Below, piece after piece: positions 4,860-62,549 of a stretch of 64,000 bases of DNA. The notes under the pieces are model-generated. The model saw nothing but the letters and a program-made list of their open reading frames with translations, ran no database searches and had not been told where the DNA came from. The first letter of the stretch is position 1. Every line of letters begins with the position of its first letter. The DNA is taken from positions 21,865,792-21,929,791 of the forward strand of contig NC_092382.1 of the NCBI RefSeq assembly GCF_030028105.1. Reading direction: 5' to 3'. The translations under genes were made by a program, and so were the position numbers. The stretch is from Mobula birostris. Taxonomy: Eukaryota.

Positions 4860-7800
4860 CGTAGAGCAGCAGGAGACCCCGAACACTCTCAGTGCCCACA
4901 CCATTAGGTGCAAGTTGTACAAAGTAAAATGCCCACTGAGAGCAGACTTCCATATTTACTTAAACTGCCGGCGAATTTTATTGCTGGGATTTTTATTTTA
5001 TCACTGACAGATATACACCGTCTTTGCCAATGAAAAAAAAATACACAGAATAAAAAAAAGAGACACGAATCCGTTAATCCACAATATTGAACTGGTAGAA
5101 ACACGAGAAATACTATCGTAATAAAACACCATAACATTTCCCCGTATAGTCTCTGTACTTACCTGTTGCTAGGCTCCTGATTCAGTTTCCTGCAAATCTG
5201 AGCATCTGAGTTTTATATCCCTACCAGTAAGTGAACACACACTGAGCAAAGTTCAGTTGATAACTCGCTCATAAACCTGAACTTCAGCCTATTCAGCTTG
5301 TAACGCCGCACCCTGTTCCACAACGCTTGTGTTAAACCACAGACAGACTCATTATGCTTGAACGCGTCTTTCTAACAAGTGGTCCGAGCCGGATTTAATA
5401 CTTAAGTGCAAGCGGTGCAAAGATTACGTTTCTCTCGAATATTTGAACTGTTTCGGAGAGGAAGAAAACCCGCATCCTGGTCCGCTCCACTGGTGCCGTC
5501 GCTTTGATTTATTGTTCACCTTAGCACCAGTTTATTGTCAGATGATAAACCTCAGCGACAGCTCAGGGCAAAGATCGCCCTGGTTTTATTGCACAGAGAC
5601 AGGGAAAGGAAGGGCGCTCTGAACTCTGATGGAATATTATGTATTTGGAATAATGTTCTCTTCTGAACAGGACGCATTCCCTTTCTCCAGATTTTACTGT
5701 GCCCCCTCTGCCTGGAGCTGACTTCAAGGTCACCCTGTTTATAAAGAGCCATTTTTAACAGTTGTCTGCAGTTGGACCATTACAGTAACTGAGCAACTGT
5801 GCCGAAATAAGCATCTCCCAGAGATAACAAATGGCCAAAGTCGACAGCGATATAAGGACACCCTTCCCCTTCAGTTTATTGCTCACTGACTGGAAACAGG
5901 TTACCATGTCACAGCAGCAATCGTATGAAATTATGATCATTTCCCGCCGGCGAATTTACCTGGCAAACCATTTACTTCACAGATACATCAACCAGCATCG
6001 CATTTATTTACAAATACTTCTACCGTTCCTCCTCAGAGAACGATGGGGAAAAAAAACATTAAATTCACTGCGTTTCTTATCTCTCAGTGTGCTCTGCTGG
6101 TATGTTGAATTAGTAACCGGACATTCACCCCCTCAGTCCTGTTCCGCCATTCACAACAGGACTGGGATCTCAGTGGCACATCCCTGCGACCGCCTGGAAT
6201 AATTCACTGCCTTGTCATTCTCGAATCTGTGCGCTGCGGAATTAAACATATTGGGAAAAAAAAACTCTGCGTGTCGTTTCCCTTGAAAACTGTTCCACCT
6301 CATCTATCTTCACCTGCTTCAGCTTCCCCGGGAACAGCAACTGATAGTATGTATACGGTAGAAAAGTTAGAAATACTTCCGTAACGAATAGGGTTATTAG
6401 AGCACCATAACACAGCCCAGTACAGTTCCTGTTCTTACCTGGTGCTGGACTCCCGAGTCTGTTCTCAGTGAATCCGAGCATCTGAATGTTATGTCCCTAA
6501 CAGTAAGTGATCACACCCTGAGCAATGATCAGTTGATAACTCGCTCATAAACCTGAACTTCAGCTTATTCAGCGTGTCACGCCGCACCCTGTTCCACAAC
6601 GCTTGTAGTGAAAAACGCAAAGACTCATTTTCTTTGAATGAGCCTTTCTAACATGTGGTTCGAGCCAAAAGTACGACTTCAGTGCGCCATGCAATGATTG
6701 CCTTTGTCTGGAAAATTTGATCTGCCCCAGGGAGGGAGCCCAACCCGCATCCTGGATCGGTTCCGCTGGTGTCGTCGCTTTAATTTATTGTTCACCTCGG
6801 GACCAGTTTATTGTCAGATTATAAACTCCAGAGACAGCTCAGGGCAAAGATCGCTGTGGGTTTGTTACTCACAGAGAGGAGAAGGAAGGGCGCCGTCAAC
6901 TCTTGTAAAATACTATGCATTTGGAGTATTTTTTGCTTTTTTTTAACACTGGGCATTCTGTAAGTGCTGCCTGAAGGAGGTAAGTCAATGTCAGCTTGTT
7001 TAGAAAGCCAGTTTTAACAGAAGGCCGCAATTGTACCATTACAGTAATGGGCCGATTGGGGGGCAACTGTGCCGAGATAACCACCTCCCAGAGATAACAA
7101 CCGGTGAAATTCAACAGTAAGATAGAACGCCCTTCCCTTTCAGTTTATTACTCACTTTCTGGAAACAAGCTACCATGTCTCAGTAGAATCATAAGAAATT
7201 ATGATTATTTCCCGATGGCGAATTTGCCTGGCATCGCACTTATTTTACAAATACATCAACCGTTCCTCGTCTGAGATCGATGGAGAAACACCAGACATTA
7301 AATTCACTTTTTCTCTGATCTCTCAGAGTGCGCTGCTGGCATGTTTAAATAGTTATAAGACATTCGCTCCCTCTGTCCTGTTCCGCCATTCTTTATTATC
7401 ACAGGCGCACTGTGATCTCAGTGACACATCCCTGCGAACGCCTGGAACAAACCATTCCCTTGACTGTCAATAATCTGTGTTCAGTGGAATTAAACACATT
7501 GAAAGAAAGCTCTGCTTCTCTTTCCCTTTGCGGAAGAGAATTCCAAAGACACACTAGTTCCACCTCAGTAAAATAACCTCATCTATCTTCACCTGTTTCA
7601 TCTCCCCCTACAGCAGCAAACATGTTTTCCACATTCCTGTCTAGACTCCGCGTGATGTTCAGTGTCCCCAGCAAGGACTCAATTCATTTATCTAACCACT
7701 AGTGGATAAAATCTCCCCTCCTTCATCTCAGTAACAGCGAATACAATAAAATCCCCGTCTTTATCGAATACCAGCCAATACAGCGCAGTGGTCAGCATTG

Positions 7801-9470
7801 AAGCGGACGGGGAACGCAGCAGAATCCCCTGGACGTGCACTCAGTGGCCACATTATTAGGTACAGGAAGTTCATAGCAAAGTGCCTAATGAGTGCAGAAT
7901 TTGCTATTTTAATCTACGGCCAGTGAGAATTACCACAATATTTGTTAATATAAATATCACTGCCAGATCTACCTGGTCTTAGCTAAAAAAAAAACACATA
8001 CAAAATAATCGAGCACACAGATCCGTACAGCCGCGCAATTTCAATGACAATACTGATATAGTAGAAATATTAGTAATACTGTCGTTACAAGTGTGCTTAT
8101 TAAAATACCATAACACTGCCGAATACAGTCCATGTTCCTACCTGATGCAGAACTCATGGGTCTGGTTTCAGGGGATCCGAGTATCTGAATTTTATGGACT
8201 CTAACAGTAAGTGAACACACCCTGAGCAATGTTCAGTTGGTAACACGCTCATAAACCTGAACTTCACGCTATTCGGCATGTAACGCCACACCTTCCTCCA
8301 CAACGATTTTGTTAAACCACACAAAGATTCACCTTGCTTGAATGAGTCTTTCTAACTTGTGGTCCGACCCAGAATTAATACTTCAGTGCGAGAAATTTTA
8401 CCACCTCCAGAGAGGAATCACTACTCGCATCCCGGTTCCGTTCGGTTGGTGCCGTCGCTTTCAGTTATTGTTCACCTTGGGCCCAGTTTATTGTCAGATT
8501 ATAAACTCCAGCGACAGCTCAGGGCAAAGATCGCTGTGGGTTTATTGCACAGAGACAGCAGAAGGAAGGGCGCTCTCAAATCTGATGAAACATTATAAAT
8601 TTGGAATAATGTTCTCTCTTGAACAGTGGACAATCCCTTTCCCAGATTTAACTGTGCCCCCGTAGCCTGGACCTGCTCTGATTTTAAATTGGCCCATTTA
8701 AATACGATCGTTAACAGTTGTCCGCAGTTGTAACATTGTCGGGAGCGGCTGTGCCAAGATTACCATCTCCCAGAGATAACTACCAGTCAAAGTCGTTAAC
8801 AAGATAAGGATACCCTTCTCCTTCAGTTTATTACTCACTGACTGGAAACAAATTGCAGGATCACAGCGCCATCATATGAGATTTGGATCATTTCCCGCTG
8901 GTGAATTTGTCTGACAGCGTATTTACTTTGCGGAAACATCAACGGTTTCTCCTCATTGACTAATAGAAAACGATGTAAACATTAATTACACAGGGCCTGT
9001 TTGTCTGAGATTGATGCTGGCCCTGTTGACTTAGTAGCAGGGCGTTCGGACTCTCAGTTCTGTTCCGCTGTTCTCTGATTCTATGATCACGACTGAACTG
9101 TGATCTCAGCGGCCCAAACCGGCCACAGCCTGCAACACTTCACTCACTTGCCAGTCAAGAATATGTGCTCTGCGGAATTAAACACGAAAAAAAACTCTGC
9201 TTCTCTTTTCTTTTGAAGAAGAGAATTCAAAGACACATTAGCCCCACTTCGTAAAAATAATCTCACCTAGCTTCACCAGTTTCAGCTCCCCTTACAGCAG
9301 CAAACGTATTCTCCACATTCCTGTCAAGATGTCTCATCATGTTGTATAAAACCTGTCACCGCTCTACTCATTTATCTGAACAAGCAGATAAAGTCTCCTC
9401 TCATTCATCTAAATAGCAGCGAATACCATCGTCTTCCATCATTTATCTAATACCTGCGAATGCAGTGAAA
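4860..9470. repeat. Three diverged tandem copies of a ~1.5-kb unit upstream of the NLR gene (~4860-6340, ~6340-7800, ~7800-9470)
   Basis: Colinear shared blocks, e.g. cgctcataaacctgaacttca (~5266, 6543, 8246), ccagtttattgtcagat (~5528, 6803, 8483), ctcccagagataac (~5815, 7086, 8767), cagtttatt (~5872, 7141, 8824). Confidence 0.9.
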
Positions 9471-12463: not shown

Positions 12464-12634
12464 NNNNNNNNNNNNNNNNNNNNNNNNNNNNNNNNNNNNN
12501 NNNNNNNNNNNNNNNNNNNNNNNNNNNNNNNNNNNNNNNNNNNNNNNNNNNNNNNNNNNNNNNNNNNNNNNNNNNNNNNNNNNNNNNNNNNNNNNNNNNN
12601 NNNNNNNNNNNNNNNNNNNNNNNNNNNNNNNNNN
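12464..12634. other. Assembly gap (171 N)
   Basis: Run of N. Confidence 1.
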
Positions 12635-15167: not shown

Positions 15168-15243
15168 ATGTCTGCAATGTTGGACAGGTACTTGAGTGTG
15201 GATAAAATATTACGAGTGTTCATTGCCGTCATGGGAGGTCCTG
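15168..15243 (+). pseudogene. GPR139-like orphan GPCR pseudogene, exon 1
   Basis: MSAMLDRYLSVDKILRVFIAVMGGP-G then GTGAGT donor, phase 1. Joins TG-AAC at 17985 to give the TM1 motif GGPVNLV. TATTAAAA lies at 15081. Confidence 0.75.
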
Positions 15244-17984: not shown

Positions 17985-18888
17985 TGAACTTAGTGGCGAT
18001 TGTGATCCTGTCCCGGGGAAAGTGTGGCCTCTCTACCTGTACCACCCGCTACCTGGTGGCCACGGCAGCGGCGGATCTACTGACCGTTGTCACCGAGGTC
18101 TTTGTGCGTCAAGTCATAAGTTATTACTTTCCGTGGAATTTTTTGAACACTACCCCGATGTGCAGAGTTGTCGAGGTACTGAGGTTCACAGCCACATACT
18201 GTTCTGTCTGGTTCACCGTCATGTTCACTGTTGATCGCTTTGTCGCTATTTGCTGTCAGAAACTAAAAACAAAATATTGCACCGGGAAAACTGCGGCTGT
18301 GGTTCTAACAACAACCGCCGTGCTGTCCTTTCTGAAAAAATGTTCCCCGTTACTTCCTCTGGGAACCCAGAGAGATCATCGAGAATGTAACATGGTTCTG
18401 CAAGCTTATGGAATATACTTTCACTGACCCCGGGTGGGTAGTATACGATTAGCTTGATATAGTTTTGAATCCGTTCATTCGTTGTGATCCTGTTACTCAA
18501 CGCTCTGACATTCAGGCACATTTTAGTGGCCAGTCAGGTCCGTAAGGGGCTGAGAGGTCAGGGCAAAGGCGAGAATCGCAGTGACCCGGAGATGGAGAGC
18601 AGGAGGAGGTCTGTGATCTTACTCCTCGCCATCTCCGGAAGCTTCATCACCCTATGGCTGACACTAGTTGTAAATTTCATGTATTATGAGATCAAAGGAA
18701 TTGGATTCGATTTCAATGATTCTGAGGTGATCTTTCACAACGCCAGGATGTTGCTGAAGAATTTCAGCTGCTGCACGAGCACATTTATTTACGCTGTGAC
18801 TCAGTCGAAATTCAGGGAGCAGGTGATCAGCGCGGTGAAATATTCGTTCAACTGGGTGCGACAGGTCATTAATAAAGCCGCGTCCTGA
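17985..18888 (+). pseudogene. GPR139-like orphan class-A GPCR pseudogene, exon 2
   Basis: 7TM motifs AADLL, FTVDRFVAICC, DPEMESRRRSVILL, SCCTSTFIY. Lesions: +1 in the A6 run at 18335-18340, in-frame TAG at 18450-18452, and a second frameshift near 18477. Confidence 0.88.
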
Positions 18889-23429: not shown

Positions 23430-24130
23430 TTTTAACTGGGTAGAAGAGGCAAAGGATTTGTGTATGGGAATCTCAAACACAACAGCACGTTAGTTCCGCT
23501 GTATCTGTCAGTTCACCAGCGCTTGAATGCCGCCGATCCTTGAATGTGGAGGCGAAGATGCTGGAGAAGACAGCGCCCCACTCGCTACAAGGAGATCCCG
23601 ATCACGTGTCCATGTCCGTGATCTGATTGGATACATTGCCATGACGTTATAGCAGTGTGATGTCATTCACTGGCTCTCATTTTGGAAGGGATTCAGTCGG
23701 ACATCCCAGATACACCAACAGCTTCGCACTGGGAAGCGGCCGTTCACCTGCTCCGTGTGTGCGAAGAGACTCATTCAGTTAACCCACCTTGTGATGCTCC
23801 GGTGAGTTCACAATAAATAGAGACCACATTTCTGTCCGGAGTGAGTAAGGAGTTTTACTCAATCATCCCAGCTGCTGCAACACCAGCAACTTCACATCAG
23901 GGAGGAAGGTCAAATCAGCTCTGTGTTAAATCACGGTGACTGAAGGCAGCTGCAGGTTCATGAGGGACTGTTACTGTCAGATTCTGCAGTTCGTGCGGCT
24001 GCTCATCGCACCCAGTACTGAACCCTGGTCACTGAGCATTGGAGGAGTCTGTTCTGCTGATGTTAGCCTCAAACTAGACTGGTGTTTAATATTGTGGATC
24101 TGTGAAAGATAAATCAGTTCTGTATCAAAT
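23430..24130 (+). pseudogene. Decayed C2H2 zinc-finger last exon
   Basis: Starts with ggaatctcaaacacaac (compare 34784 in the intact ZNF gene). Remnant fingers [22 protein letters not shown] and FCPE*VRSFTQSSQLLQHQQLHIREE. The 3' part resembles 37980-38060. Confidence 0.7.
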
Positions 24131-28477: not shown

Positions 28478-31400
28478 TTATACTTTTATACTTTATACTT
28501 CATCGTTGCCAAACAGTTGGTACTAGAACATACAATCATCACAGCAATATTTGATTCTACGCTTCACACTCCCTGGATTACAAATATTAAATATTAAAAA
28601 TAGTTAAAATTAGTAAATATAAAAAATTTAAATTATAAGTCATAAATAGAAAATAGAAAAATGGGAAGTAAGGTAGTGCAAAAAAACTGAGAGGCAGGTC
28701 TGTATATTTGGAGGGTACGGCCCAGAGCTGGGTCAGGATCCATTCAGCAGTCTTATGACATTTGGAAAGAAGCTGTTCCCAAATCTGGCCGTACGAGTCT
28801 TCAAGCTCCTGAACCTTCTCCCGGAGGGAAGAGGGATGAAAAGTGTGTTGGCTGGGTGGGTCGTGTCCTTGATTATCCTGTCAGCACTGCTCCGACAGCG
28901 TGCGGTGTAAAGTGAGTCCACGAATGGAAGATTGGTTTGTGTGATGTGCTGCACCGTGTTCACGATCTTCTGCAGCTTCTTCCGGTCTTGGACCAGACAA
29001 CTTCCATACCAGGTTGTGATGCACCCTAGAACAATGCTTTCTACGGTGCATCTATAAAAATTAATGAGGGTTTTAGGGGACAGGCCAAATTTCTTTAGTT
29101 TTCTCAGGAAGTAAAGGTGCTGGTGGGCCTTCTTGGCAGTGGACTCTGCTTGGTTGGACCAAGTCGGGTCATTTGTGATATTGACACCGAGGAACTTAAA
29201 GCTTTTGACCTGTTCCACTTGCGCACCACCAATGTAAATTGGGTCGTTCAGTCCGCTACTCTTTCTGAAGTCAACAACCAATTCCTTCGTCTTGCTGACA
29301 TTGAGGGATAGGTTATTGTCTTCGCACCATGCCACCAGGTTCTTAATTTCCTCTCTGTACTCAAACTCGTCATTACCCGAGCTACGGCCTACAATTGTTG
29401 TGTCATCAGCAAACTTATATATTGAGTGTGAAGGAAACTTGGCTACACAATCATGGGTGTACAGTGAGTACAGCAGGGGGCTGAGTAGTTTGTCCCCTAT
29501 TTTTAGAGCCTGGGTCCTGTCTGTGAGGAAGTTGAAGATCCAGCTGCAGATCTGAGTGCTAAGGCCCAGGTTACGGAGCTTAGGAATCAGTTTATTTGGA
29601 ATGATGGTATCAAAAGCAGAGCTGTAGTCAATGAAAAGGAGTCTTACGTAAGCGTCTTTATTGTCCAGGTGTTGTAAGGAGGAATGTAGGGCCAGAGAGA
29701 TGGCATCTGCCGTTGACCTGTTGCTCCGGTAGGCGAATTACAAAGCGTCGAGGTTGACCGGTAGGCTGTGGTTGATGTGTGCCATAACCAATCTCTCGAA
29801 GCACTTCATAGCAATTGATGTCAGAGCCACAGGTCGATAGTGATTCAGGCACGCCACCTTGCTCTTCTTCGGCACTGGGATTATCGTTGCCTTCTTAAAA
29901 CACGAGGGGATCTTAGACTGAAGCAAGGAGCCGTTGAAGATGTCAGCAAACACTCCAGCTAGCTCGCTTGCTCAGGCCCGGAAAACCCATCCTGGGACGC
30001 CATCTGGGCCCGTCGCCTTCCTTGGATTTATCTTCAGGGAGGCCCTTCTAACGTCCTCCTGAGTGACGATGAATCTCGATGTCACCAGGTCCGGTTCATC
30101 CGGAGGGAGCTGGACGCTCCTCTTCTGTTCGAATCTTGTGTAGAATAGGTTAAGTTCGTCAGGAAGAGAAGTGCCGCAGTTATTGATATTCCCAGCCTTT
30201 TCTTTGCACCCAGTGATCTCACTTAGACCCTGCCATAGTCTACTGGCATCCCTCTGGTTAGCCTGGGCTTCCAACTTGGCTCGATATTGCCTCTTGGCGC
30301 CCTTAATGGCTTTCCGGGGTTCACGCCTGGATTCTGTGTAGCGACTGGTATCCCCGGACCTAAAAGCCGCAGCTCCAGCCTTTAAAAGAGACTTGACCTC
30401 ATAATTCATCCAAGGTTTCCGGTTAGGGAATACCCGGATCATCTTGCGAGACACACAGTCCCCCGTGCATTTCCAAATAAAGTCCGTGACAGCTGAGGCA
30501 TACTCATCGAGGTTAGCTGCCGAGTCCTTGTATACTAACCAGTCCACCAATTCAAAACAGTCACGGAGGACCTCATCCGTTTCCTCCGTCCAATGTGACA
30601 CTACTTTTGACACCGTGACCTCCCGCTTCAGTTTCTGTTTGTAAGCCGGGAGGAGGAGAACGGCCTGATGGTCCGATTTTCCGAAGTGAGGTCGTGGGAC
30701 GGAACGGTAGGCATCCTTGACTGCTGTGTAGCAGTGGTCAAGTATATTCGGGCCTCTAGTGGGGCAGGAGACATGTTGGTATAACTTTGGCAGCGCCTTT
30801 CTGAGGTTGGCCTGGTTAAAGTTCCCGGCTGTAATGAGCAAAGCCTCCGGATACCTGGTCTCAAGTTCACTGATGTTGGCATACAGTATGTTCAGAGCAC
30901 ACTCCACGTCCGCCTGGGGGGGAATGTAGACCGCTGTCAGTATGACCGAGGTGAATTCCCGTGGCAGATAGTAGGGATGACACTTCACCGACAGGTGTTC
31001 CAGGTCCGGGCTGCAGGAACTTGTCAGTGCCACTGTGTCCGAGCACCACCCAGTGTTGATCAGTAGGCAGACACCACCTCCCCTCGCCTTGCCCGAAGAT
31101 GCCGTGTGGTCCCTGCAATGGATCGAAAATCTCTCTGGTCGGATAGCACAGTCGGGGGTGGCAGGGGAGAGCCAGGTCTCGGTGAAACAGAATACACAGC
31201 AGTTCTGCATCTCCCTGCAGTAGGTGAGTCTCCCTTTAGGATCATTCACCTTGTTCTCTCTGGCTTGCACATTAGCTGGTAGGTTGGTGGGCATAGGGAC
31301 TCTGAAGCCCCTTGGCTTCAATCTGTTCAGCAGCCCAGTTCTTTTCCCACGTTTCCTTGGTAAATAGTGCATCTTTCCAGGTCTCCATCGATGCAGTGTG

Positions 31401-34516: not shown

Positions 34517-35171
34517 GTCACAGATTGGAGATGGCAGAAATGCCCCATTCTTATAGAGACAGAAAGAGCATCAGAGAGTTTGATGGTCACTCCAGATACC
34601 AGCTCTGTGCCCTGTTACAAGATGATTTCTCTCTCCAACTTGTGTTGAACTTCACTGTAACAATATGATGCCAGAATAGACCTTGACAACTCAAGTGACC
34701 TCATCTGAAAGGTTGTCCAACACTGATTGATGGATTTTGTAAATTTTTTTTACAGGTTAAAAATGACAAGGAATTTGTCTACAGGAATCTCGAACACAAC
34801 ACGCCAGTTTTGCTGTCTCTGTCCAGATATTTAAGAAGTGGAGTAAGGGATTCACTCGATCATCCTTCCTGTTCAGACTGTGGGGAGGGATTCACTCGAT
34901 CATCTGACCGACTGGCATGCCCGTCATTTTACACGGGGGGGGGGGGGAAGATCCCATTCATCTGCTCAGACAGTGGGAATGGATTCACTCGGTCATCTCA
35001 ACTGAAGATCCACCAGCAAGTTCACACTGGGCAAGTCCGTTCACTTGTTCTGTGGGTGAGAAGGGATTCAGTCGGTCTTCCCATCTGTGGACACACCAGT
35101 CAGTTCACACTGGGCGGAGGCTGGTCATCTGCTGAATTTGTGGGGAAGGATTCACTCGGTCATCTGACCTA

Positions 35172-36362
35172 ATGGCTCACCAGCGAGTTTACACCGAGGA
35201 GCGGCCGTTCACCTGCTCGGACTGTGGGAAGGGATTCACTTGCTCGTCTCAGCTGAAGGTGCATCAGCGAGTTCACAGTGGAGAGAGGCCTTTCACCTGC
35301 TCAGATTGTGGAAAACGATTCGCTTGCTCATCTGAACTGAAGGTGCATCAGCGAGTTCACACTGGAGAGAGGCCGTTCACCTGCTCAGACTGTGGGAAGG
35401 GATTCACTCAGTCATCTCATCTGAAAGTACATCAGAGAGTTCACACTGGGGAGAGGCCATTCACCTGCTCAGACTGCGGGAAGGGATTCACTCAGTCATC
35501 CAACCTACTGGTACACATGTCAGTTCATGCTGGGGAGAGGCCATTCACCTGCTCAGACTGTGGGAAAGGATTCATTCGGGCATCTGAACTGAAGTTACAT
35601 CAGCGAGTTCACACTGGGGAGAGACCGTTCATCTGCTCAGACTGTGGGAGGAGATTCACTTGGTCATCTGAACTGAAGGTGCATCAGCGAGCTCACACTG
35701 GAGAGAGGCCATTTACCTGCTCAGATTGTGGAAAGCGATTCACTTGCTCATCTGAACTGAAGGTGCATCAGCAAGTTCACACGGGAGAGAGGCCGTTCAC
35801 CTGCTCAGACTGTGGAAAGGGATTCACTCGGTCATCCCAGCTGCTGGTACACAGGTCAGTTCACACTGGGGAGTGGCCGTTCACCTGCTCAGACTGTGGA
35901 AAGGGATTCACTCGGTCATCCCAGCTGCTGGTACACAGGTCAGTTCACACTGGGGAGAGGCCATTCACCTGCTCAGACTGTGGAAAAGGATTCACTCAGT
36001 CATCTCATCTGAAGGTACATCAGAGAGTTCACACTGGGGAGAGGCCATTCACCTGCTCAGACTGTGGGAAAGGATTCTCACGGTCATCTGAACTGAAGTT
36101 ACATCAGCGAGTTCACACTGGGGAGAGGCCATTCACCTGCTCAGACTGTGGGAGGAGATTCACTCGGTCATCTGAACTGAAGGTACATCAGCGAGTTCAC
36201 ATTGAACAGAGGCCGTTCACCTGCTCAGACTGTGGGAAAGGATTCACTCAGTCATCCGAACTGAAGGTACATCAGCGAGTTCACACTGGGGAGAGGCTGA
36301 TCACCTGCTCAGACTTTCTGAAGAGATTCTCTCAGCCACATCAACCAAATGTGCATCATTGA
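35172..36362 (+). CDS. C2H2 (Kruppel-type) zinc-finger protein, 396 aa, 13 intact tandem fingers plus 1 degenerate finger, no KRAB/SCAN domain
   Basis: 28-aa repeats CSDCGKGF.xSSxLxxHQRVH with TGERPF linkers in an uninterrupted ORF. Confidence 0.93.
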
Positions 36363-39689: not shown

Positions 39690-40990
39690 CCGAGGACTCG
39701 GAAGTTTACTATAAGCTTACTGACTCTCACAGCTATCTGGACTATTCCTCTTCTCACCTTGTCTCTTGCAAAAATGCCATCCCCTTCTCACAATTCCTCC
39801 AACTCCACTGTACCTGCTGTCAGGATGACGCTTTTCATTCCAGGATGAGGGAGATGACCTTTTTTAAGTAAGGGGGCTTCCCTTCCTCCACCACCAACTC
39901 TGCTCTCAAATGCGTATCCCCCATTTCACGCACATCTGCTCTCACTCCATCCTCCCGCCACCCCACTAGGAAAAGGGTTCCCCTTGACCTCACCTGCCAC
40001 CCCACCAGCCTCCGGGTCCAACATATTACTCTCCGTAACTTCCGCCATCTCCAACAAGATCGCACCACTAAGCACATCTTTCCCTTGCCCCCTCTGCTTT
40101 CCACAGGGATCGCTCCCTACGCAACTCCCTTGTCCATTCGTCCCTCCCAACCCTCCCCACCGATCTCCCTCCTGGCACTTATCCTTGTAAGCGGAACAAG
40201 TACTACACATGCCCTTACACTTCCTCCCTCACCACCATTCAGGGCCCCAGACAGTCCTTCCAGGTGAGGCGACACTTCACCTGTGAGTCGGCTGGGGTGA
40301 TATACTGCGTTCGGTGCTTCCAATGCAGCCTTCTATATATTGGCGAGACCCGACACAGACTGGGAGATAATTTCGCTGAACACCGACGCTCTGTCTGCCA
40401 GAGAAAGCAGGATCTCCCAGTGGCCGCACATTTTAATTCCACGTCCCATTCCCATTCTGATATGTCTATCCATGGCCTCCCCTACTGTAAAGATGAAGCC
40501 ACACTCAGGTTGGAGGAACAACACCTTATATTCTGTCCGGGTAGCCTCCAACCTGATGGCATGAACATTGACTTCTCAAACTTCTGCTAATGCCCCACCT
40601 CCCCCTCGTACCCCATCTGAAATGTATCTATATACAGACATTCTTTTTCTCTCTCTCCTTTTTCTCCCTCTGCCCCTCTCTATATACCCCTGGCCCATCC
40701 TCTGGGTTTCCCCCCCCTCCCCCTTTTCTTTCTCCGTGGGCCTCCTGTTCCATGATCCTCTCATATCCCTTTTGCCAATCAACTGTCCAGCTCTTGGCTC
40801 CATTCCTCCCCCTCCTATCTTCTCCTATCATTTTGGATCTCCCCCTCCCCCTCCCACTTTCAGATCTCTTACTCGTTCTTCCTTCAGTTAGTCCTGACGA
40901 AGGGTCTCGGCCGGAAACGTTGACTGTACCTCTTCCTAGAGATGCTGACTGGCCTGCTGCGTTCACCAGCAACTTTGATGTGTGTTACTT
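39690..40990 (+). mobile_element. Penelope-like retroelement 3' portion (RT C-terminus remnant, GIY-YIG endonuclease, pLTR)
   Basis: ORF 40264-40590: FTCESAGVIYCVRC..C..LYIGET..RL..F.EH...PVAAHFN...E..LI.......PDGMN. Confidence 0.92.
40889..40926 (+). ncRNA. Minimal type-I hammerhead ribozyme motif in the Penelope pLTR
   Basis: tagtc-CTGACGA-agggtctcggccg-GAAA-CGTT-gactg: catalytic boxes CUGANGA and GAAA, stem I agtc/gact, short stem II, palindromic AACGTT in place of stem III. Confidence 0.7.
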
Positions 40991-41029
40991 ATATTTCCTT
41001 CTGTTGTTTGAACCGTCTGTCCAATCAGA

Positions 41030-41400
41030 TAATAGTTCTCTAATGTTGCTTTTGCCAAAATGCATTATTGTACATTTCCCAATATTGTACACCATCTGCC
41101 ACTTTGTTGCCCATTCTTCAAATTTGTCTGTGTCCTGCTGCAATCGCATTGCTTCCTCAGCACTACCAACGCATCCACCTATCCTTGTATCATCCGCAAA
41201 CCTTCCCACAAAGCCATCAATTCCTTTATCCAAATCATCGACAAATAATGTGAAAAATAGCGGACAGAATACTGACCCCTGGAGACCACTAGCCACTGTT
41301 AGCTAACCAGAAAAAGGCTCTTTTTATTTCCACTCGCTGCCTCTTGGCTGCCAGACATTCCTCTATCCATGCCAGTATTTCTTCTGATTTTTATCCTGTT
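41030..41400 (-). mobile_element. CR1-type LINE RT fragment
   Basis: LQGSVFCPLFFTLFVDDLDKGIDGFVGRFADDTRIGG...KCTIMHFG. The element resumes left of the Penelope insertion (~39000-39660). Confidence 0.85.
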
Positions 41401-41409
41401 AAGCAATGG

Positions 41410-44400
41410 GGGTGTATGGGGTGGTTGGGTCCTGACTAAATATCAGGAAATGCCAATAGCGATTATATAGCTTCTGCCGCCCAAGACAACTCCGCCTTCA
41501 CGGAGGGCTCAGGTCCGGGTGCAGCCTGTCTCGCTGAAGGAGCTCTGTCTATGGCGAGTGTTTAGCACCAGAGAAATAACCAGACCGACGCTGGTGGTGT
41601 CACCTAAAATCACTGAAGGCTCTGGCAGCAGGGAGATTGATTTCAAGCTGTGGTGGAGGATTGTCTTTGTACAACAACAGCAAAGGTAGGGCGATGCCTA
41701 GTGTATGATTCCCAATCGGGAACACCAGTAGAGGTCAAATGCTCTAGTTAGATGAGCACTGCGGCAACAGAAGGCAACGGCAAACCAATGTTGAAATTTC
41801 TGCCTCTTCAGTCATGAAAAGAAACAAAAGAAGGAAACCAGACAACAGCGTGAATGGGGTTTATTCTAATGAACAGAACAACACCTCGCTCGGTCGGGGT
41901 AGTCACGTGCTGCAGGTGACACCAGACCGTCATCCAGAGACTGTAAGCAATAGGGAAAGGCTAAGGGTAGCAACATGGAACATCCGTATACTTTACCAGA
42001 AAGGAAGTTGGACAACACTTTAACTGAAATGTAAAGGTTGGAAGTTGATATCTTCGGCGTGTCAGAAATTAGATGGACCGATAGTGGCAAATTCACTGAG
42101 AATAGTTCTCTGATCATGTACTCTGGAGGTCAACAGCGTATGTATGGAGCTGGGATTATTTTAAACAAACGCGTATCAGAATGTGTTATGGGATCTTGGG
42201 CTGCTTTTAGTTAAATTGAGGGGTAACCCTTTCAACATTAGCGTAATCCAAGCCTGTGCGCAAACAAATGATGCGGATGAAGAAGATATCAGCAAGTTTT
42301 ATGAAGGTCTCGACAGTGCTTATGAGCAATGTAAATCTCAGGATATAAATCTAGTCATGGGAGACTTTAACTCCAAAGTGGACAGGAAAGCGTTGATAAC
42401 ATCATAAAACATTTGGATTAGGGGAGGAAAATGAAAATGAAGAAAGGTTTACTGATTGGTTTGTCAGAACCAACCAAGTGATCACCAATTCTTGGTATAA
42501 AAACCATCCATGTAGATTGTGTACTTGGATTAGCCGTGGAGATAGACAAGGAATCAAATAGATTTCATTACCATCAGTGAACGCTTTAGAAATAATATCA
42601 CAAATTGTAAAGCCTACCCAGGAGCAGAGCACCATCCAGTAATAGCTACCATTAACACAAATTTAAAGAAACTGAAACGTGGAAAAAAGAGAAAGGAGTA
42701 TATGTTGGGAGAACATAAAAATGATAGCATACTTAAGCAGCAATTCAAAACAGCTGTAGAAGAGCACCTCACCGAACACGAAACATACCTATTTGGGACA
42801 GATTTAAATATGCTGTACAGCAATCAGCAGAGGAGATAATCCCAGTACAAGAAATCCAACATACCAACAAGGGGTGGATAACCCGAGAAATCCGAGATCT
42901 GATGGAACAAAGAAGAATAATGAAGTGTAACACAGAGAACGAGACAGATAGACCAGACAATTGTGCAATATTGCAAAGGAAGAATGGCTGAATCAAAAAT
43001 GCAATGAAGTAGAAAGCCATATTAACAATAACAATGAAATGCACAAGAAAATTTAGGAAATTAATGTAATTAAGAAAACTTCTACAGGATGCATAAGATC
43101 AGCAGACAGATCCATACTAACAGACCCAGGTAAAGTATGTGAGAGGTGTATTCAGTACATAGATCTGCTTTTTCAAGAAAATAGAGGGGAATCCCCGGAT
43201 ATTAAACACCCTAATTCTGGCCCACCTATTACCAAAGAAGAAATAACTAAAGCAATGAAAAGCCTAAAACCTAGTAAAGCCACTGGACCTGATGAAATTT
43301 CAGTGGAAATGATACAAGCCCTGGAGGATCTGGGCATAGATATTCCTTATGAACTGTTTCATTTCATATATGAGTCTGCTGTATGCTCTGACGATCTCTT
43401 GAAATCAGTATTTATAACTCTTCAAAAATTCCTGGAACTCTTGACTGTGGAAATTATAGAACCGTCAGTCTTATGAGCCACATAATAAAGATTTTGTTGA
43501 GAGTTGTTCTGAGTCGAATGAAAAATAAGTTAAGTCTAGCAACTTCTAAACTGCAGTGTGGGTTTATTGAGGATAAACGAACTAGGAACACAATTTTCAT
43601 ACTACGAATGCTTTCAGAAGGGGCAATTGAATATCAAAATGATGTATTTTTATGTTTTATCGATTTCACTAAAGCATTCGACAAAGTGAAACATGAAAAA
43701 TTCTTTCAAATTCTCTCTAAACTAGACACTGATGGAAGGAACCAACAACTGCTTCAAAATTTATATTGGAATCAAACAGCAGCGGTAAAGAAGTATGATA
43801 ATATAAGCAGTTGGACTAACATTCAAAGAGGAGTTAGACAGGGATGCGTTGCCTCACCGAAATTATTTGATATCTACAACGAAATGATTCTCAGAGAAAT
43901 AGAAGGCCTCGATGGGATAAAAATTGGAGTTGTTAACATCAACAATATAAGATATGCAGACGATACCACTCTAATAGCAAGTGCTGCAGAAGACCTACAC
44001 ATCCTCCTAGACAAAGTAGTACAAGCAAGTGCAGATTTTGTTCTAACCACCAACTGTTAAAAAAAAACAAATGTATGGTAATATCAAAACAGCAGGATAT
44101 TCCCAACTGCCAATTGTACATCGGTAACCAAGAGATTGAACAAAAGACCAGCTTTAATTACATGAGTAGCTTTATATCAGAAAATTCTGGAAGTAAAGCA
44201 GAAATAAAAAAGAAGAATTGCCATTGCCAAAACCAACTTCCAAAAAATGAAACCCATTTTTACCAACAGACACATTTCTATGACAACAAGGCTTAGGCTA
44301 CTAAAATGTTGCATCTGGTCAATCTTGCTGTATGCTTCTGAAACATGGACTATAACACCAGAACTCCAAAGAAACTTAGAAGCAACAGAAATGTGGTTTC

Positions 44401-49620: not shown

Positions 49621-50318
49621 AAATGAATGGTCCCTGTAAAAGTTTATACAACTATGAGGAGGTGTATATTGTACAGATAGCCAATAACTTTGTCTTCTCC
49701 ATTGTCAGCAGTGGCACGTCCATACACAGATCTGAAGACATTCTTTTTCTCGCCCAGTGCGGCGTGGTCATGTCTACAGCAGACGTGCTGAATGCAGGTG
49801 ATAATAAAACAATGGAAACGTGTCTGGAGAACCCTTGGTTAACAAAGGTAGAGAGGGATACGGGCTGCATTATGGCTCTGGGGATTGGCATAGGTCGCCA
49901 TAGTCGAGCTGGGGCAGAATCTATGCAATATTGATTCCGCACTGCAATCTACAAGAAGGTAGCTCTGTCACAGCGCTGACCGCAGCGAATCTGCACTGCC
50001 AGTGCAAAAGTCATTCCGATGACTCCACCTTTACCCGAGTTACCCAGCGGCCAAATGAGCCCGACTGTCAACACAGCTGTCAAACGCAACGAGTGAATGA
50101 AATCAACTGAGGATACCAGGATTGTTGGTGACGTCACGGCTATCAAGGTCGCTCCTGCACGGAAATGGAGTTATATTTTATTTCAAGTCAATTTAATAGC
50201 GGGACACATTACACTGAAACACATAAAACCCAGATATACATCACGACCCAATAACAGATTCCCGATGCGGAGAATTAGTAGTTAATGAACATTCGACTTT
50301 AGGAATATGTGCTTTGCT

Positions 50319-51229
50319 TTACCTGTGTTTTTTAACCAATTTTAAAAATAAAGTCCAAGGGTATTTTAACACCAGCCGCATTTCCTCTCTAAACTTAGTC
50401 TGGGTCGCTGTATAAATGCAGGCGTTCGTGCAGGAACTCAGATACATGATCATGTAGCCGGCTTCAGTGGCGACATAGGCGGAGTCGGTGTAATCGCCGT
50501 CGTAATGCGCGGTTCCTGCGAGTCGGGTGATCTGAAAGATCACAGTGACCGACAGCCATAACAGAATGAAACTGCCGGACACACTAAAGAGTAAAATGAT
50601 GGATTTCCGGCGGCCTTCCATCTCCGGATCCTTCTGTGTTTGACTGCCTTGACCGCGCAGTCCGCGGCGCACTTTACTGGCTAATAAAATGCGCCTTACC
50701 GTCAGACAGTTAAACAGGGTTATCAGAACAAAAGGTGATATAACCGTTAAAATACTCTGCAGAAAGGAGAATGCGACGCCCACAAGAGACGTAATGAACC
50801 ATGAGCTCGACTGACAGCCCCATTGAATACCGTTAATTACACGCTCAGGTTTATACTGAAATAGATACGGGACGTTCTGTAAATGCATCAGGAGCGGCAC
50901 GGTTATAATGCCAGCAACAGCTGTCCTCACCGTGCAATATTTCGTTTTAAGCTTCTCACAACAGATCGCTACAAACCGATCGGCTGTGAACAGGACAGTG
51001 TACCAGACCGAGGTTTGCAGGCAGGTCGAATTGAAGTACAGGACGACCTTACAGGCGGATGTGTAGGACAGGAAGGAGAATGGAAACTGGTACGTGACGA
51101 TATGATACACAATTACAGAGACGATCATCACCAGGAAATCTGCCATTGCCATGAAAGCCATGTAGAGCGATATACATTTGGAAAGGCCACAATTCCCTCG
51201 GAAGAGGACCACCATTGTCAATAGGTTCG
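50319..51229 (-). CDS. GPR139-like orphan class-A GPCR, exon 2 (intact; 326 aa after splicing)
   Basis: tctttccctAG acceptor, then (A)NLLTMVVL...AMADFLV...FTADRFVAICC...DPEMEGRRKSIILL...SSCTNACIY...FREE...KHR*. Seven hydrophobic segments and no lesions. Confidence 0.92.
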
Positions 51230-52114
51230 CTAGGGAAAGAGTCACAAATTGTGAGTTACAAACAGGGCGAGGAGAAACGTTCTCGGAATCCAAAGTGAAA
51301 ATACTAATCCGACTGTGATCGGCAAAATTACCGGGTAAATATGTTCCAAGAGAGAATAAAAACTCCTCATTCAGTGAACTAAAACAGTTTGCATTCGAAC
51401 TGCGCATTTGCTCCTGGTAAAGTTGCTGGTGACGTGCTCTCGATGTCACCTTGGCGATGTAACCGAGAGGGGGCAGCACTGCTGCTCATTTGCCTTCACA
51501 ACCCAGAAAAATAGAGGAGATCACCATCTTCTCCCATACCTCCCTTGCGCCCTACTTTCCCTACCCGTGGGATCGTCATTTCAATGGCCCTTATCCTCGA
51601 AGCCCCATTCAGACACCAGCCGTAGGGAATGAGAGCCGTGACAGAGCTGAACACAGTGGCTGTAGGAGGATCGGCTGATGTGCAGCTGACAGATTCCACT
51701 CAACGGAACTCTCAGTATTATTGAGCCGGTACTGGCCCGGGGTAACTGGGGTCGTGCCCGCTGTCGGTCATCAGCCCCAGGGTGAAACCGATGCACTCGT
51801 TCCCTCCGTTTAGTCAATGAATGAGCGCAGGGCCCGGTGAACAGAATCGGACTTCACTGACTCGTTTAGTGTCGCTTGTACGCAATCTAGCTTAAACTCG
51901 AATAATTTCAGAAACGTCTATCAATGAATAAGTTCTTCCACTTGGATATATCCGCCATTTTTGATCACATTCGTTATCATCTTAAAGGTGCGATAGGGAG
52001 AAATTAATTCAAATCTCCAGGTGGGCACCCCATTCTTGTGCTAGCTATATTTACTATAATTCCCAACTGGTTCGGGTAAGACATCTAATGAAAGGTTTGA
52101 TCGGAAATGCACAA

Positions 52115-52150
52115 AGGGGGGAGGGAAGGAGAGGGAGAGAGTGAGTGAGC

Positions 52151-52200
<50 letters not shown>

Positions 52201-52275
52201 CAGAGAGACAGAACAAGAGAGATTGTGCGAGAGGGAGAGAGACAGAGATGAGAGAGAGTGACAGTGAGAGAGAAA
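52115..52275. repeat. (GA)n-rich microsatellite in the GPCR intron
   Basis: Direct inspection. Confidence 0.9.
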
Positions 52276-52669
52276 ATTCAGCTACGGTGGCAGTTGGTAC
52301 AATCCGCAACGCTCCCACAAATCGTCCTGTTGTACTGCTCCTTCACCAAAAGTTAGGTCACAAAATACATTTCAATCTGCAACAATCCCGGTATCAGATT
52401 TACGCTGACAGTGGTGAACAGCGGAGAGGACTGATCTCCCTGAATTTCAGCAGCATCGTCTACGATGAACTCTGGGGGTGGGATGGGGGGGTCGGGGTGA
52501 CAGTGAACTTGACCCTGCATCAGCGTGTGGAGCGGAGACGAACCGTTCAGCAGCGGTAGTCTGCCGTGTGTCCGCGCTGGGTCGGTTTCGCCGGGAAACA
52601 ACACCCAGTGAAATGACTGTTAATAGAAGTCCGTCGCTAACATTTCAGACAGAGGATGTGTCGACTTAC

Positions 52670-52739
52670 CCGGAACACCGAAAGCTGCGAGAATAGGGTA
52701 AAATACAATCGTCACATGCCGGATTGTTGGTAGAGCCAT
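52670..52739 (-). CDS. GPR139-like orphan GPCR, exon 1
   Basis: aaaATGG start context; MALPTIRHVTIVFYPILAAFGVP-G; GTAAGT donor, phase 1. Completes the TM1 motif GVPANLL. Confidence 0.9.
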
Positions 52740-52813
52740 TTTCGGGTGTTGTACAAAATGCACCGCACTGCTCGCACTGAGAGCCACTCGCCTGCGTTCT
52801 GACCTCGCTGCCC

Positions 52814-52820
52814 TTTTATA
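52814..52820 (-). promoter_or_regulatory. TATA box of the intact GPCR gene
   Basis: TATAAAA about 75 nt upstream of the ATG. Confidence 0.6.
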
Positions 52821-60537: not shown

Positions 60538-61532
60538 GCCCTAGGAACAAGCCTGTAGCTATCCACACGACCAATGTCTCTCATCATCCTGTACACCTGC
60601 ATGAATTTCCTGCATGTTTCTCTCCAGGCTGAATAAGACGATAAGCTCACTGTGCTTTTGACGTCCTTCAGGGCTCTGGATGAAGTTGGTTAAACTCCTT
60701 CCTCCCCGCTCTTTTCAACGTCTTGTATCATTTTCACTCATTTCAAAGGACTGTGTCTCAGACAGCTGGGTTGTTGCAATGCACCTCTAAAGTCTGACAG
60801 CAGACTAGTGAGTGAATCATCGATGGAGTAGAGTCAGAAATCAGCCTGAATCAGGGCTTTGGGGCTCCTGAAAGAGATGGGACCTAGAGTTTACCAGGAG
60901 GAGCAGGAAGAGGAATCAGACTGGTAGGATGTGGCTGCAAATGAAAGATCAGAAACATTTTCAAACAGTTTGAAAAAAAAAGGTGGTTAATTTCTGCAGA
61001 ATACTGGAGGAAATCAACAGATCTGGCTGCAAATGCGGAGAGGAATAAATAGACAATATTTATGCTGAGCCCCTTCAGCATGTCTAGACTGTGTACTCCT
61101 CTGCTTTGTAGCTGCCTGAACTGCGGAGTTCCTCCAGCATTTTGTGTGCGCGTCTCTGTACCGTATTTCCTGCAACTGCAGAATCTCTTGTGTTTTATAT
61201 CTACACTTGTAAAAGGATTGTACTTTGGCATTAGATACACGTTGATATTGAGTATACTGTTTATGGGAAACGCTTTCTGCGCTAAAACAGCTGCTGAATT
61301 TTCTATGCACACACACACAAAAACTGAGCTACGAACATGGAACTGGTGCTTGCAGAAACTTTTAATGGCACCGTGATTACCCATAAATCCCTGCGTTACA
61401 AATATCGCCGTCGCCGAAGCACCGATCAAATGCACAGGCGTCAGCGTTGTGACGTTCCCGAATATCACGCATGCGCGCAGTGCACAAAGGCCTCAGAAGA
61501 GCAGCGGCAGGTAAGAGCGACTCTCCGGGGGT

Positions 61533-62190
61533 AGGGGAGAAGGGAGAGAGGGTGAGGGGGGGGAGAAGGGAGAGAGGGTGAGGGGGGGAGAAGGGAGAGA
61601 GGGTGAGGGGGGGAGAAGGGAGAGAGGGTGAGGGGGGGGAGAAGGGAGAGAGGGTGAGGGGGGGAGAGAAGGGAGAGAGGGTGGGGGGGCGGAGAAGGGA
61701 GAGAGGGTGGGGGGGAGAAGGGAGAGAGGGTGAGGGGGGAGAAGGGAGAGAGGGTGAGGGGGGGGAGAAGGGAGAGAGGGTGAGGGGGGGGAGAAGGGAG
61801 AGAGGGTGAGGGGGGGGAGAAGGGAGAGAGGGTGAGGGGGGAGAAGGGAGAGAGGGTGAGGGGGGGGAGAAGGGAGAGAGGGTGAGGGGGGGAGAAGGGA
61901 GAGAGGGTGAGGGGGGAGAAGGGAGAGAGGGTGAGGGGGGGAGAAGGGAGAGAGGGTGAGGGGGGGAGAAGGGAGAGAGGGTGAGGGGGGGGAGAAGGGA
62001 GAGAGGGTGAGGGGTGGAGAGAGGGTGAGGGGTGGAGAGAGGGTGAGGGGGGGAGAAGGGAGAGAGGGTGAGGGGGGGGAGAAGGGAGAGAGGGTGAGGG
62101 GGGGAGAAGGGAGAGAGGGTGAGGGGGGGAGAAGGGAGAGAGGGTGAGGGGGGGAAGAAGGGAGAGAGGGTGAGGGGGGCAGGGGGAGGG
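61533..62190 (+). repeat. G-rich minisatellite, unit ~GAGAAGGGAGAGAGGGTGA(G)6-8, roughly 25 copies
   Basis: Direct inspection. Almost pure purine on the + strand. Confidence 0.95.
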
Positions 62191-62549
62191 GGGGTTGGGG
62201 GGTGTTTCAACACTGACTTCGGGACAATTACTGTGACTCCAGACACCGTGAGCCGCAATCCCGGGACAGTCCTGCTCTCTTCCCTCTCTCTCAGCCCCAC
62301 GATCCGTACACGGGCCCCGGGGAGCTTCCGGCTGATGAGGGAATGGGAACCGATGGATCTCTCAGACAAAGCTGAGCTCCAACTGTCTAAATGCAAGGAT
62401 CGGGAACCCGGAGAAAGGGAACAAAATCTTTTACATCAGCTGTTGAGAAAATCACCTTTGTTCTGCCTCCAATCACAAACAAGAGAAAATCTTCAGAGAG
62501 GGCACAGTTTTAAGGTGCTTGTTAGTAGGTACGAGGGAGATATCAGGGG

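Follow-up and report, generated by a model that had tools for sequence, protein, structure and literature searches.

GPR139 and GPR142 are orphan G protein-coupled receptors (GPCRs) of class A which are activated by L-Trp and L-Phe. GPR139 is Gq-coupled (PMC6367278) and a highly conserved receptor of the brain, 70% identical between human and zebrafish, which is encoded by a gene of two exons (PMC7318219). Three further orphan subtypes of fishes and the coelacanth, GPR210A, GPR210B and an unnamed one, have been described beside these two (Rinne et al. 2019, PMC6504862), in a paper whose main text does not contain the word 'shark'. Surveys of shark chemoreceptors list only the known families, with 65 genes in the catshark (PMC6368271), and cartilaginous fishes have on average 43.8 known olfactory receptor genes, the smallest number among vertebrates, despite many sensory neurons (PMC10869828). 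Here, we analyse a stretch of 64,000 nucleotides from Mobula birostris (contig NC_092382.1, positions 21,865,792 to 21,929,791; in the following 'the window'), which contains on its minus strand an intact two-exon gene of a class A GPCR without stop or frameshift. An earlier note, made from the DNA letters, had described this gene as an orphan receptor of an expanded GPR139-like family. Our reading, to which we assign a probability of roughly 0.45, is that it encodes a functional receptor belonging to a diversified repertoire used for chemosensation; that the family forms a repertoire with diversified ligands on one signalling face is strongly indicated by its proteins, and given such a repertoire, chemosensory use would have about half the weight.

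The window gene is a member of a birth-and-death multigene family, with tens of genes per genome in sharks and rays. In a protein search with the window receptor, 805 of 1837 candidates (90% clusters) match at E ≤ 1e-5, and a search against 50% representatives finds 96 proteins at E ≤ 1e-30; among the best 120 of the 805 matches, all 118 proteins with names are from elasmobranchs, and 110 of these are called 'probable' or 'putative GPR139'. A further search added more subfamilies. The family set used below comprises 216 proteins with names, which come from 20 elasmobranch species, with no chimaera among them. Counting only distinct proteins (<95% identity), horn shark has at least 49, sawshark at least 44 and sevengill shark at least 41 members, all being lower bounds drawn from two lists of the best 120 matches, which upholds the expansion claimed before and refutes a low-copy gene. 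The horn shark members are spread over many records, with several per record, pointing to several gene clusters, and in the tree subfamilies are common to sharks and rays. Turnover is visible in a pseudogene within the window and in frame-breaking deletions of related copies; the contigs of another organism, at low depth, carry net deletions of 31 and 10 bases relative to window positions 50575-50608 and 50891, and they appear to be broken paralogues or alleles of the window gene's subfamily. For such an expansion of GPR139-like receptors in elasmobranchs, no published account was found in the literature searched, the scope of which left aside most subscription papers and bioRxiv supplements; the supplements of three shark and skate papers (PMC10115646, PMC13188829, PMC12361510; a picture-only file in two of them not covered) do not mention it, and 'receptor 139' is absent from the text of PMC11979771 (supplement outside the scope), as is 'shark' from that of PMC12208981. 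NCBI annotates the genes, but solely by their automatic name, and the expansion may have been overlooked.

The evidence for diversified ligands comes from a comparison of mean pairwise identity at 20 upper-pocket columns, at 61 further columns lying equally deep in the helix bundle and at 82 columns of the cytoplasmic half. Within the family, these amount to 0.23, 0.43 and 0.68, respectively, and none of 10000 random column sets was as low as the pocket; the same excess of pocket variation is seen in each of the three sharks analysed alone. Two related vertebrate clades with mostly single-copy genes, here termed X and Y, served as controls: the corresponding values are 0.76, 0.63 and 0.70 in clade X (116 of 120 rows) and 0.95, 0.77 and 0.79 in clade Y (21 rows). 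In the window gene's own subfamily, the overall divergence of which matches that of X (0.63 vs 0.67), the values are 0.38, 0.54 and 0.74 (p 0.002). To limit the effect of shared ancestry, reciprocal nearest pairs were chosen without using the pocket columns: 32 same-species pairs of the family differ in 144 of 640 pocket cells as compared to 277 of 1951 others (p 1.8e-6), 25 pairs of clade X show the opposite direction (20 of 498 vs 131 of 1521, p 0.0005), and in four pairs of clade Y the pocket differs in 3 of 80 cells vs 27 of 244 others (p 0.07). A second comparison was made against the 20 columns which are freest to vary in X and Y; since these were picked on X and Y, that side is circular and only the elasmobranch side counts. 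Here, the family pocket remains the more variable (identity 0.23 vs 0.44, p 0.0005), also in 28 same-species pairs (138 of 560 vs 96 of 560 cells, p 0.0025), which argues against mere relaxation. Charge changes number 25 in the pocket and 4 at the free columns, partly reflecting the hydrophobic nature of the latter.

The three most variable positions of the whole extracellular half are 3.33, 3.32 and 6.51, the same that shape the GPR139 site, and the 20-residue pocket signatures are distinct in 49 of 49 listed horn shark, 44 of 44 sawshark and 40 of 42 sevengill shark proteins. At the same time, the G-protein-facing columns retain an identity of 0.78. The idea of a conserved signalling face with a variable ligand face is thereby confirmed at the level of pocket columns, on proteins and with the single-copy controls X and Y. 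The divergence of the extracellular loops (ECLs), from which it had originally been drawn, was tried as a diagnostic of a repertoire and had to be rejected, as ECL2 is equally variable in the single-copy control (identity 0.39 in the family, 0.38 in clade X). In viral, prokaryote and metagenome collections, 0 of 80, 0 of 46 and 0 of 55 pattern matches, respectively, were confirmed as coding DNA of relatives.

Regarding kinship, a profile built from 68 family members and searched against PDB ranks human GPR139 first of 480 sequences (E 4.6e-23, 84.8 bits vs 64.6 for the next), and a clade X protein also finds GPR139 first. The window protein alone yields 20 PDB matches at E ≤ 0.001, with an orexin receptor first and GPR139 absent, and its identity with GPR139 in the structural alignment is 18%. 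By the profile match, GPR139 is the nearest characterised receptor and the window family belongs to the broad GPR139/GPR142 group; the proposed relation to GPR139 holds in this sense, but clade Y is the closer sister group. Clade X, mostly with a single gene per species, extends over the coelacanth, ray-finned fishes, three sharks, amphibians, squamates and turtles, and its named rows include neither mammals nor birds; clade Y consists of 20 amphibian proteins and one sturgeon protein, mostly single-copy. The elasmobranch family forms one clade both in a quick tree of 92 rows (support 96; sister to Y, 99) and in a careful tree of 36 rows (93/96; sister to Y, 100/99), and the topology joining it with X is rejected by the approximately unbiased test (p-AU 0.002); these trees were built without true GPR139 and GPR142, and 13 and 4 unnamed representatives, respectively, were taken as elasmobranch by assumption. 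Strict monophyly of the elasmobranch family with respect to Y is well but not fully supported. A loose motif of the third intracellular loop (ICL3), DxE[MILV]xx[RK][RK], occurs in 195 of the 216 elasmobranch proteins and in 20 of 21 from clade Y but in none of 120 from clade X, a distribution which agrees with the trees (the exact form DPEMExRRxS is present in 90 of 216). A restriction of the lineage to cartilaginous fishes, as had been supposed, is not supported, the sister gene being present in amphibians and a sturgeon.

As for the clades themselves, 32 of 91 clade X gene models leave the consensus exactly before N1.50, which points to an intron at the same site of the first transmembrane helix (TM1) as in the window gene. 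The clade X receptors (P0220, P0228, P0270-P0387) are devoid of W6.48 and P6.50, yet their pocket is strongly conserved (E2.61, R3.28, D3.29, Q5.42, R6.51, Q6.55); two clade X models are named TMEM183A isoforms, hinting at linkage. Clade Y (P0215, P0389-P0408, P0472) has N2.50 in place of D2.50 and a near-invariant basic pocket of R2.61, K6.51, K6.55 and R7.35, suggesting a receptor for one fixed acidic ligand. Two deeper relatives, P0251 and P0252 (25-27% identity), branch just outside X, Y and the elasmobranch family. Matching by description alone, our guess is that X and Y might correspond to the GPR210 subtypes, bony-vertebrate orphans next to GPR139 and GPR142 (PMC6504862).

Concerning the activation motifs, DRF, NACIY and FILLWLS are present in the window protein exactly as claimed, but of their description as non-canonical only the loss of Pro6.50 stands out as special, the remainder being mostly traits of the GPR139 group or of the family. 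Human GPR139 has DRY, W-A-P in TM6, N-F-F-L-Y in TM7 and Asn at 5.58; because it shows both, the missing NPxxY proline and Asn5.58 are traits of the whole group. DRF, a mild variant of DRY, is found in 191 of 216 family members. Pro6.50 is kept in all clade Y rows and in 13 of 216 family members, including some early-branching ones, and NPxxY in 19 others; no member has both and 184 have neither, and the loss of Pro6.50 is the one real departure of the family from the GPR139 group. Otherwise, the core is well preserved, with R3.50, N5.58 and Y7.53 at 100%, W6.48 and C3.25 at 98% and F6.44 at 94%. The Trp/Phe site of GPR139 is formed by F109, H187, W241 and N271, with R244 (PMC5430874). At the corresponding positions F3.33, H5.43, W6.48, R6.51 and N7.38 the window protein has S, Q, W, V and Y, retaining only W6.48; since four of five residues differ and none of 216 members keeps all five, aromatic amino-acid sensing cannot be transferred from GPR139 to the window gene, contrary to what had been suggested. 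Four members, all from sharks (P0414, P0449, P0475, P0451), have four of the five residues and, should aromatic amino acids be sensed by any member, would be the likeliest to do so. Position 7.36 is acidic in 169 of 216 members (Glu in the window gene; Asp in X and GPR139).

We propose a single GPR139-related orphan as the origin of the repertoire, with the mostly single-copy gene of amphibians and sturgeon as its counterpart in bony vertebrates. Each member may have a small ligand of its own, bound deep between the helices, as the N-terminus measures only 24 residues to N1.50 and a disulfide is expected between TM3 and ECL2; Glu7.36 may anchor an amine of the ligand, and the signal would pass via the conserved F6.44/W6.48 core to D-R3.50. 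By analogy with GPR139, the structure of which (a match of the fold search) was solved with Gi, all members might couple to one shared G protein. The most likely use would be in sensory epithelia or scattered chemosensory cells, for detecting chemicals that are water-borne, come from food or are social signals. Still more tentatively, and on balance doubtfully, the family could constitute a further chemoreceptor family of sharks and rays, independent of the olfactory receptors (ORs), TAAR, V1R, V2R and taste receptors, of GPR139-type origin, at least as large as the whole known olfactory repertoire and sparsely expressed in the olfactory organ or skin.

Several points weigh against this chemosensory reading. 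The sequence pattern is the same in immune receptor families and gives no preference for sensory over immune use. No RNA sequencing run is listed among those containing the window gene, and in four runs the contigs over 50000-52100, a stretch ending short of exon 1, span exon 2 and the intron alike, without a splice joint, and are uninformative on expression. Promoter elements common to the gene and the pseudogene were sought in 600 nt, where only short matches at chance level were found. The pocket itself also calls for caution: the column list was set before testing, the tests treat columns as independent, and both the pocket columns and the helix numbering follow what we take to be the standard class A lists. 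In 19 between-species pairs, the excess of pocket differences is not significant (61 of 379 vs 163 of 1156 others, p 0.36), which fits conservation of orthologues and also indicates that the signal is not universal. Nor were pocket changes shown to be more radical than those at the free columns (BLOSUM62, p 0.42).

Alternatively, leukocytes or barrier epithelia might use the same diversified repertoire to detect peptides and metabolites of microbes or parasites, in the manner of formyl-peptide or Mas-related receptors; we regard this as unlikely, though a serious candidate. All sequence evidence for diversified pockets applies to it equally, and duplicates that are recent and lineage-specific, together with the pseudogenes, are in line with turnover between host and pathogen; chemokine receptors, moreover, are among the next PDB matches of the profile after GPR139, albeit far weaker and no sign of kinship. 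Against it stand the family's short N-terminus (24 residues up to N1.50), unlike the long acidic one of chemokine receptors, and the neural character of GPR139, the nearest characterised relative (PMC7318219). Receptors for diversified endogenous peptides or metabolites of brain, gut or gonad, comparable to the invertebrate FMRFamide/MIP-type receptors, would suit the grouping of GPR139 with FMRFamide and MIP/sex-peptide receptors and its response to some peptides (PMC12208981, PMC7318219), as well as those subfamilies in which pockets are near-identical across distant species (P0468 and P0489, 0 of 20 pocket differences). Fixed endogenous ligands should, however, preserve the pockets, as they are in X and Y, and a genome with 40 or more distinct pockets would require a set of unknown ligands of like size, making this explanation improbable.

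A mostly passive amplification in repeat-rich and zinc-finger-rich regions, with relaxed pocket constraint and ligand-free or modulatory receptors as its outcome, could draw on the LINE-rich (long interspersed nuclear element) window with its C2H2 zinc-finger array and pseudogene, and on the absence of both helix prolines in 184 of 216 members. Relaxation should, however, bring the pocket to the level of the free columns and not below it (0.23 vs 0.44), and the near-invariant R3.50, Y7.53, N5.58, W6.48 and C3.25, the conserved G-protein-facing columns (0.78) and the subfamilies common to sharks and rays speak against it; its chances seem slim. That the window gene is simply the true orthologue of GPR139 or GPR142, with Trp or Phe as its ligand, is implied by the automatic name of 110 of the 118 named rows among the best 120 matches, and GPR139 is first in the family-profile search and second in the fold search, with two exons in both genes. 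It nevertheless is hardly credible and was rejected: the window protein alone misses GPR139 among its 20 PDB matches (E ≤ 0.001), the structural identity of 18% contrasts with the 70% between zebrafish and human GPR139 (PMC7318219), clades X and Y are closer, only one of five Trp/Phe-site residues is kept (none of the 216 members keeping all five), and three sharks each have no fewer than 41-49 paralogues. A chemosensory repertoire with diversified pockets remains the reading we prefer.

The features of the window are compiled in the table below. The coding sequence begins at 52739 with an ATG whose surroundings, AAAATGG, have A at -3 and G at +4, and the exon 1 N-terminus is the same as in the Mobula models P0002 and P0005. 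The 326-residue product matches Pfam 7tm_1 (E 9.7e-20, 71.6 bits vs a cut-off of 30.5) and has the attributes of class A, namely 7tm_1, the seven-helix fold, N1.50, D2.50, C3.25, D-R3.50, P5.50 and Y7.53; 24 residues before N1.50 is also the family mode (154 of 214 members). For the exon-2 product, an AlphaFold model based on 68 sequences of the family reaches a predicted local distance difference test score (pLDDT) of 87.5, with helices corresponding to the C-terminal part of TM1, to TM2 to TM7 and to helix 8 and with a hairpin in ECL2, and a fold search with it matches only class A receptors, GPR139 being second. Sequence, Pfam and model together corroborate the TATA box, good start context, intact two-exon seven-helix gene, scant extracellular N-terminus and position of the phase-1 intron within G-x-P^A-N described before. 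The closest named protein is from Mobula birostris itself (96% identity). Model P0002 has a longer C-terminus, the final 16 residues of which match window positions 50014-50061 (-) exactly; a possible splice donor overlaps the last codons of the window gene, which might indicate an alternative 3' exon or an artefact of this model. Cytoplasmic cysteines of ICL1 and ICL2, namely C13, C18, C89, C90 and C98 of the exon-2 product (50322-51227, -), occur in 211, 202, 213, 172 and 210 of 216 members, respectively, and could be a lipidation or metal site.

Table. Features of the window, in window positions; promoter and polyadenylation elements are assigned from sequence only.
Feature	Position	Strand	Remark
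TATA box TATAAAA	52814..52820	-	81 nt upstream of ATG; putative promoter element
Coding exon 1	52670..52739	-	70 nt, 23 codons + 1 nt; encodes the short N-terminus and TM1 up to its middle
Intron, GT..AG, phase 1	51230..52669	-	1440 nt; splits Ala of G-V-P^A-N in TM1
AG-type microsatellite	near 52130-52270		inside the intron
Coding exon 2	50319..51229	-	911 nt; from N1.50 to the stop, covering the end of TM1, TM2 to TM7 and helix 8
Candidate polyadenylation signal AATAAA	50177..50182	-	about 137 nt past the stop
ATTAAA	50197-50192	-	near the candidate polyadenylation signal
Pseudogene exon 1	15168..15243	+	TATTAAA 87 nt upstream
Pseudogene exon 2	17985..18888	+	different subfamily; 128/302 residues identical to the intact gene
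C2H2 zinc-finger exon	35136-36362	+	about 14 fingers; between both receptor copies; degenerate fingers just upstream
Zinc-finger remnant	23708-23817		isolated
LINE-type reverse-transcriptase fragment	28736-29737	-	
LINE-type reverse-transcriptase fragment	40988-41302	-	
LINE-type reverse-transcriptase fragment	43392-44057	+	
Minisatellite	61451-62244		25-nt period
Three-copy unit	5119-9196		1.3-1.7 kb
N gap	12464-12634		171 bases

The pseudogene shares the site and phase of its intron with the intact gene and is disrupted by frameshifts near 18335-18341 and 18477-18480 and by an in-frame TAG stop at 18450; because of the low identity of the two, it is an old paralogue and no recent copy. DPEMExRRxS in ICL3 is common to both, as had been noticed. 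The high divergence claimed for their extracellular loops applies to ECL2 (5 of 27 residues identical) and ECL3 (4 of 14), whereas ECL1 (5 of 10) is no outlier against the overall value. A search with family proteins (tblastn) found no third copy in the window. With regard to other genes, 226 of 257 open frames of at least 75 amino acids (repeats and the frames of the receptor and zinc-finger genes being excluded or searched separately) gave only matches to reverse transcriptase/LINE and zinc-finger proteins and one weak match below the cut-off.

The number of distinct family proteins per shark genome, at least 41-49, already equals the mean of 43.8 olfactory receptor genes (PMC10869828). If these receptors are sensory, a vertebrate chemoreceptor family would have originated independently, which would revise the picture of a small repertoire in cartilaginous fishes; if they are immune, a large unrecognised set of innate sensors would be added to an early lineage of jawed vertebrates. 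The single-copy sister gene of amphibians offers an experimental handle on the ancestral ligand, and the clade X receptor is a deorphanisation target in its own right. The automatic name 'GPR139', carried by hundreds of family genes, is moreover misleading for functional annotation.

Compared with known systems, the family has in common with GPR139 the G-x-P-A-N of TM1, Asn5.58, W6.48, the acidic residue at 7.36, the missing NPxxY proline and the two-exon gene. It differs from this highly conserved brain receptor (PMC7318219) in being large and variable, in having a cysteine pair between TM3 and ECL2 (C3.25 in 98%, the ECL2 Cys in 205 of 216 members) that aligned GPR139 lacks, in the lost Pro6.50 and, for the window protein, in four of the five Trp/Phe-site residues. 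Clades X and Y differ from the elasmobranch family in turn by mostly one gene per species and conserved pockets. The chemoreceptor repertoires (OR, TAAR, V1R/ORA, V2R, T1R, T2R) likewise have compact genes, birth-and-death evolution, lineage-specific subfamilies and a variable pocket with a conserved face. A variable pocket on a conserved signalling face is the OR pattern, and the TAARs provide a precedent for a repertoire born from a receptor for endogenous ligands; the window family lies outside all six of these families and has its nearest kin among GPR139-type receptors. Formyl-peptide receptors and Mas-related GPCRs are expanded class A families with diversified pockets in immune and sensory cells, to which the likeness is one of description. 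In our reading, the family of sharks and rays is a lineage-specific receptor repertoire on a GPR139-type scaffold, with diversified pockets.

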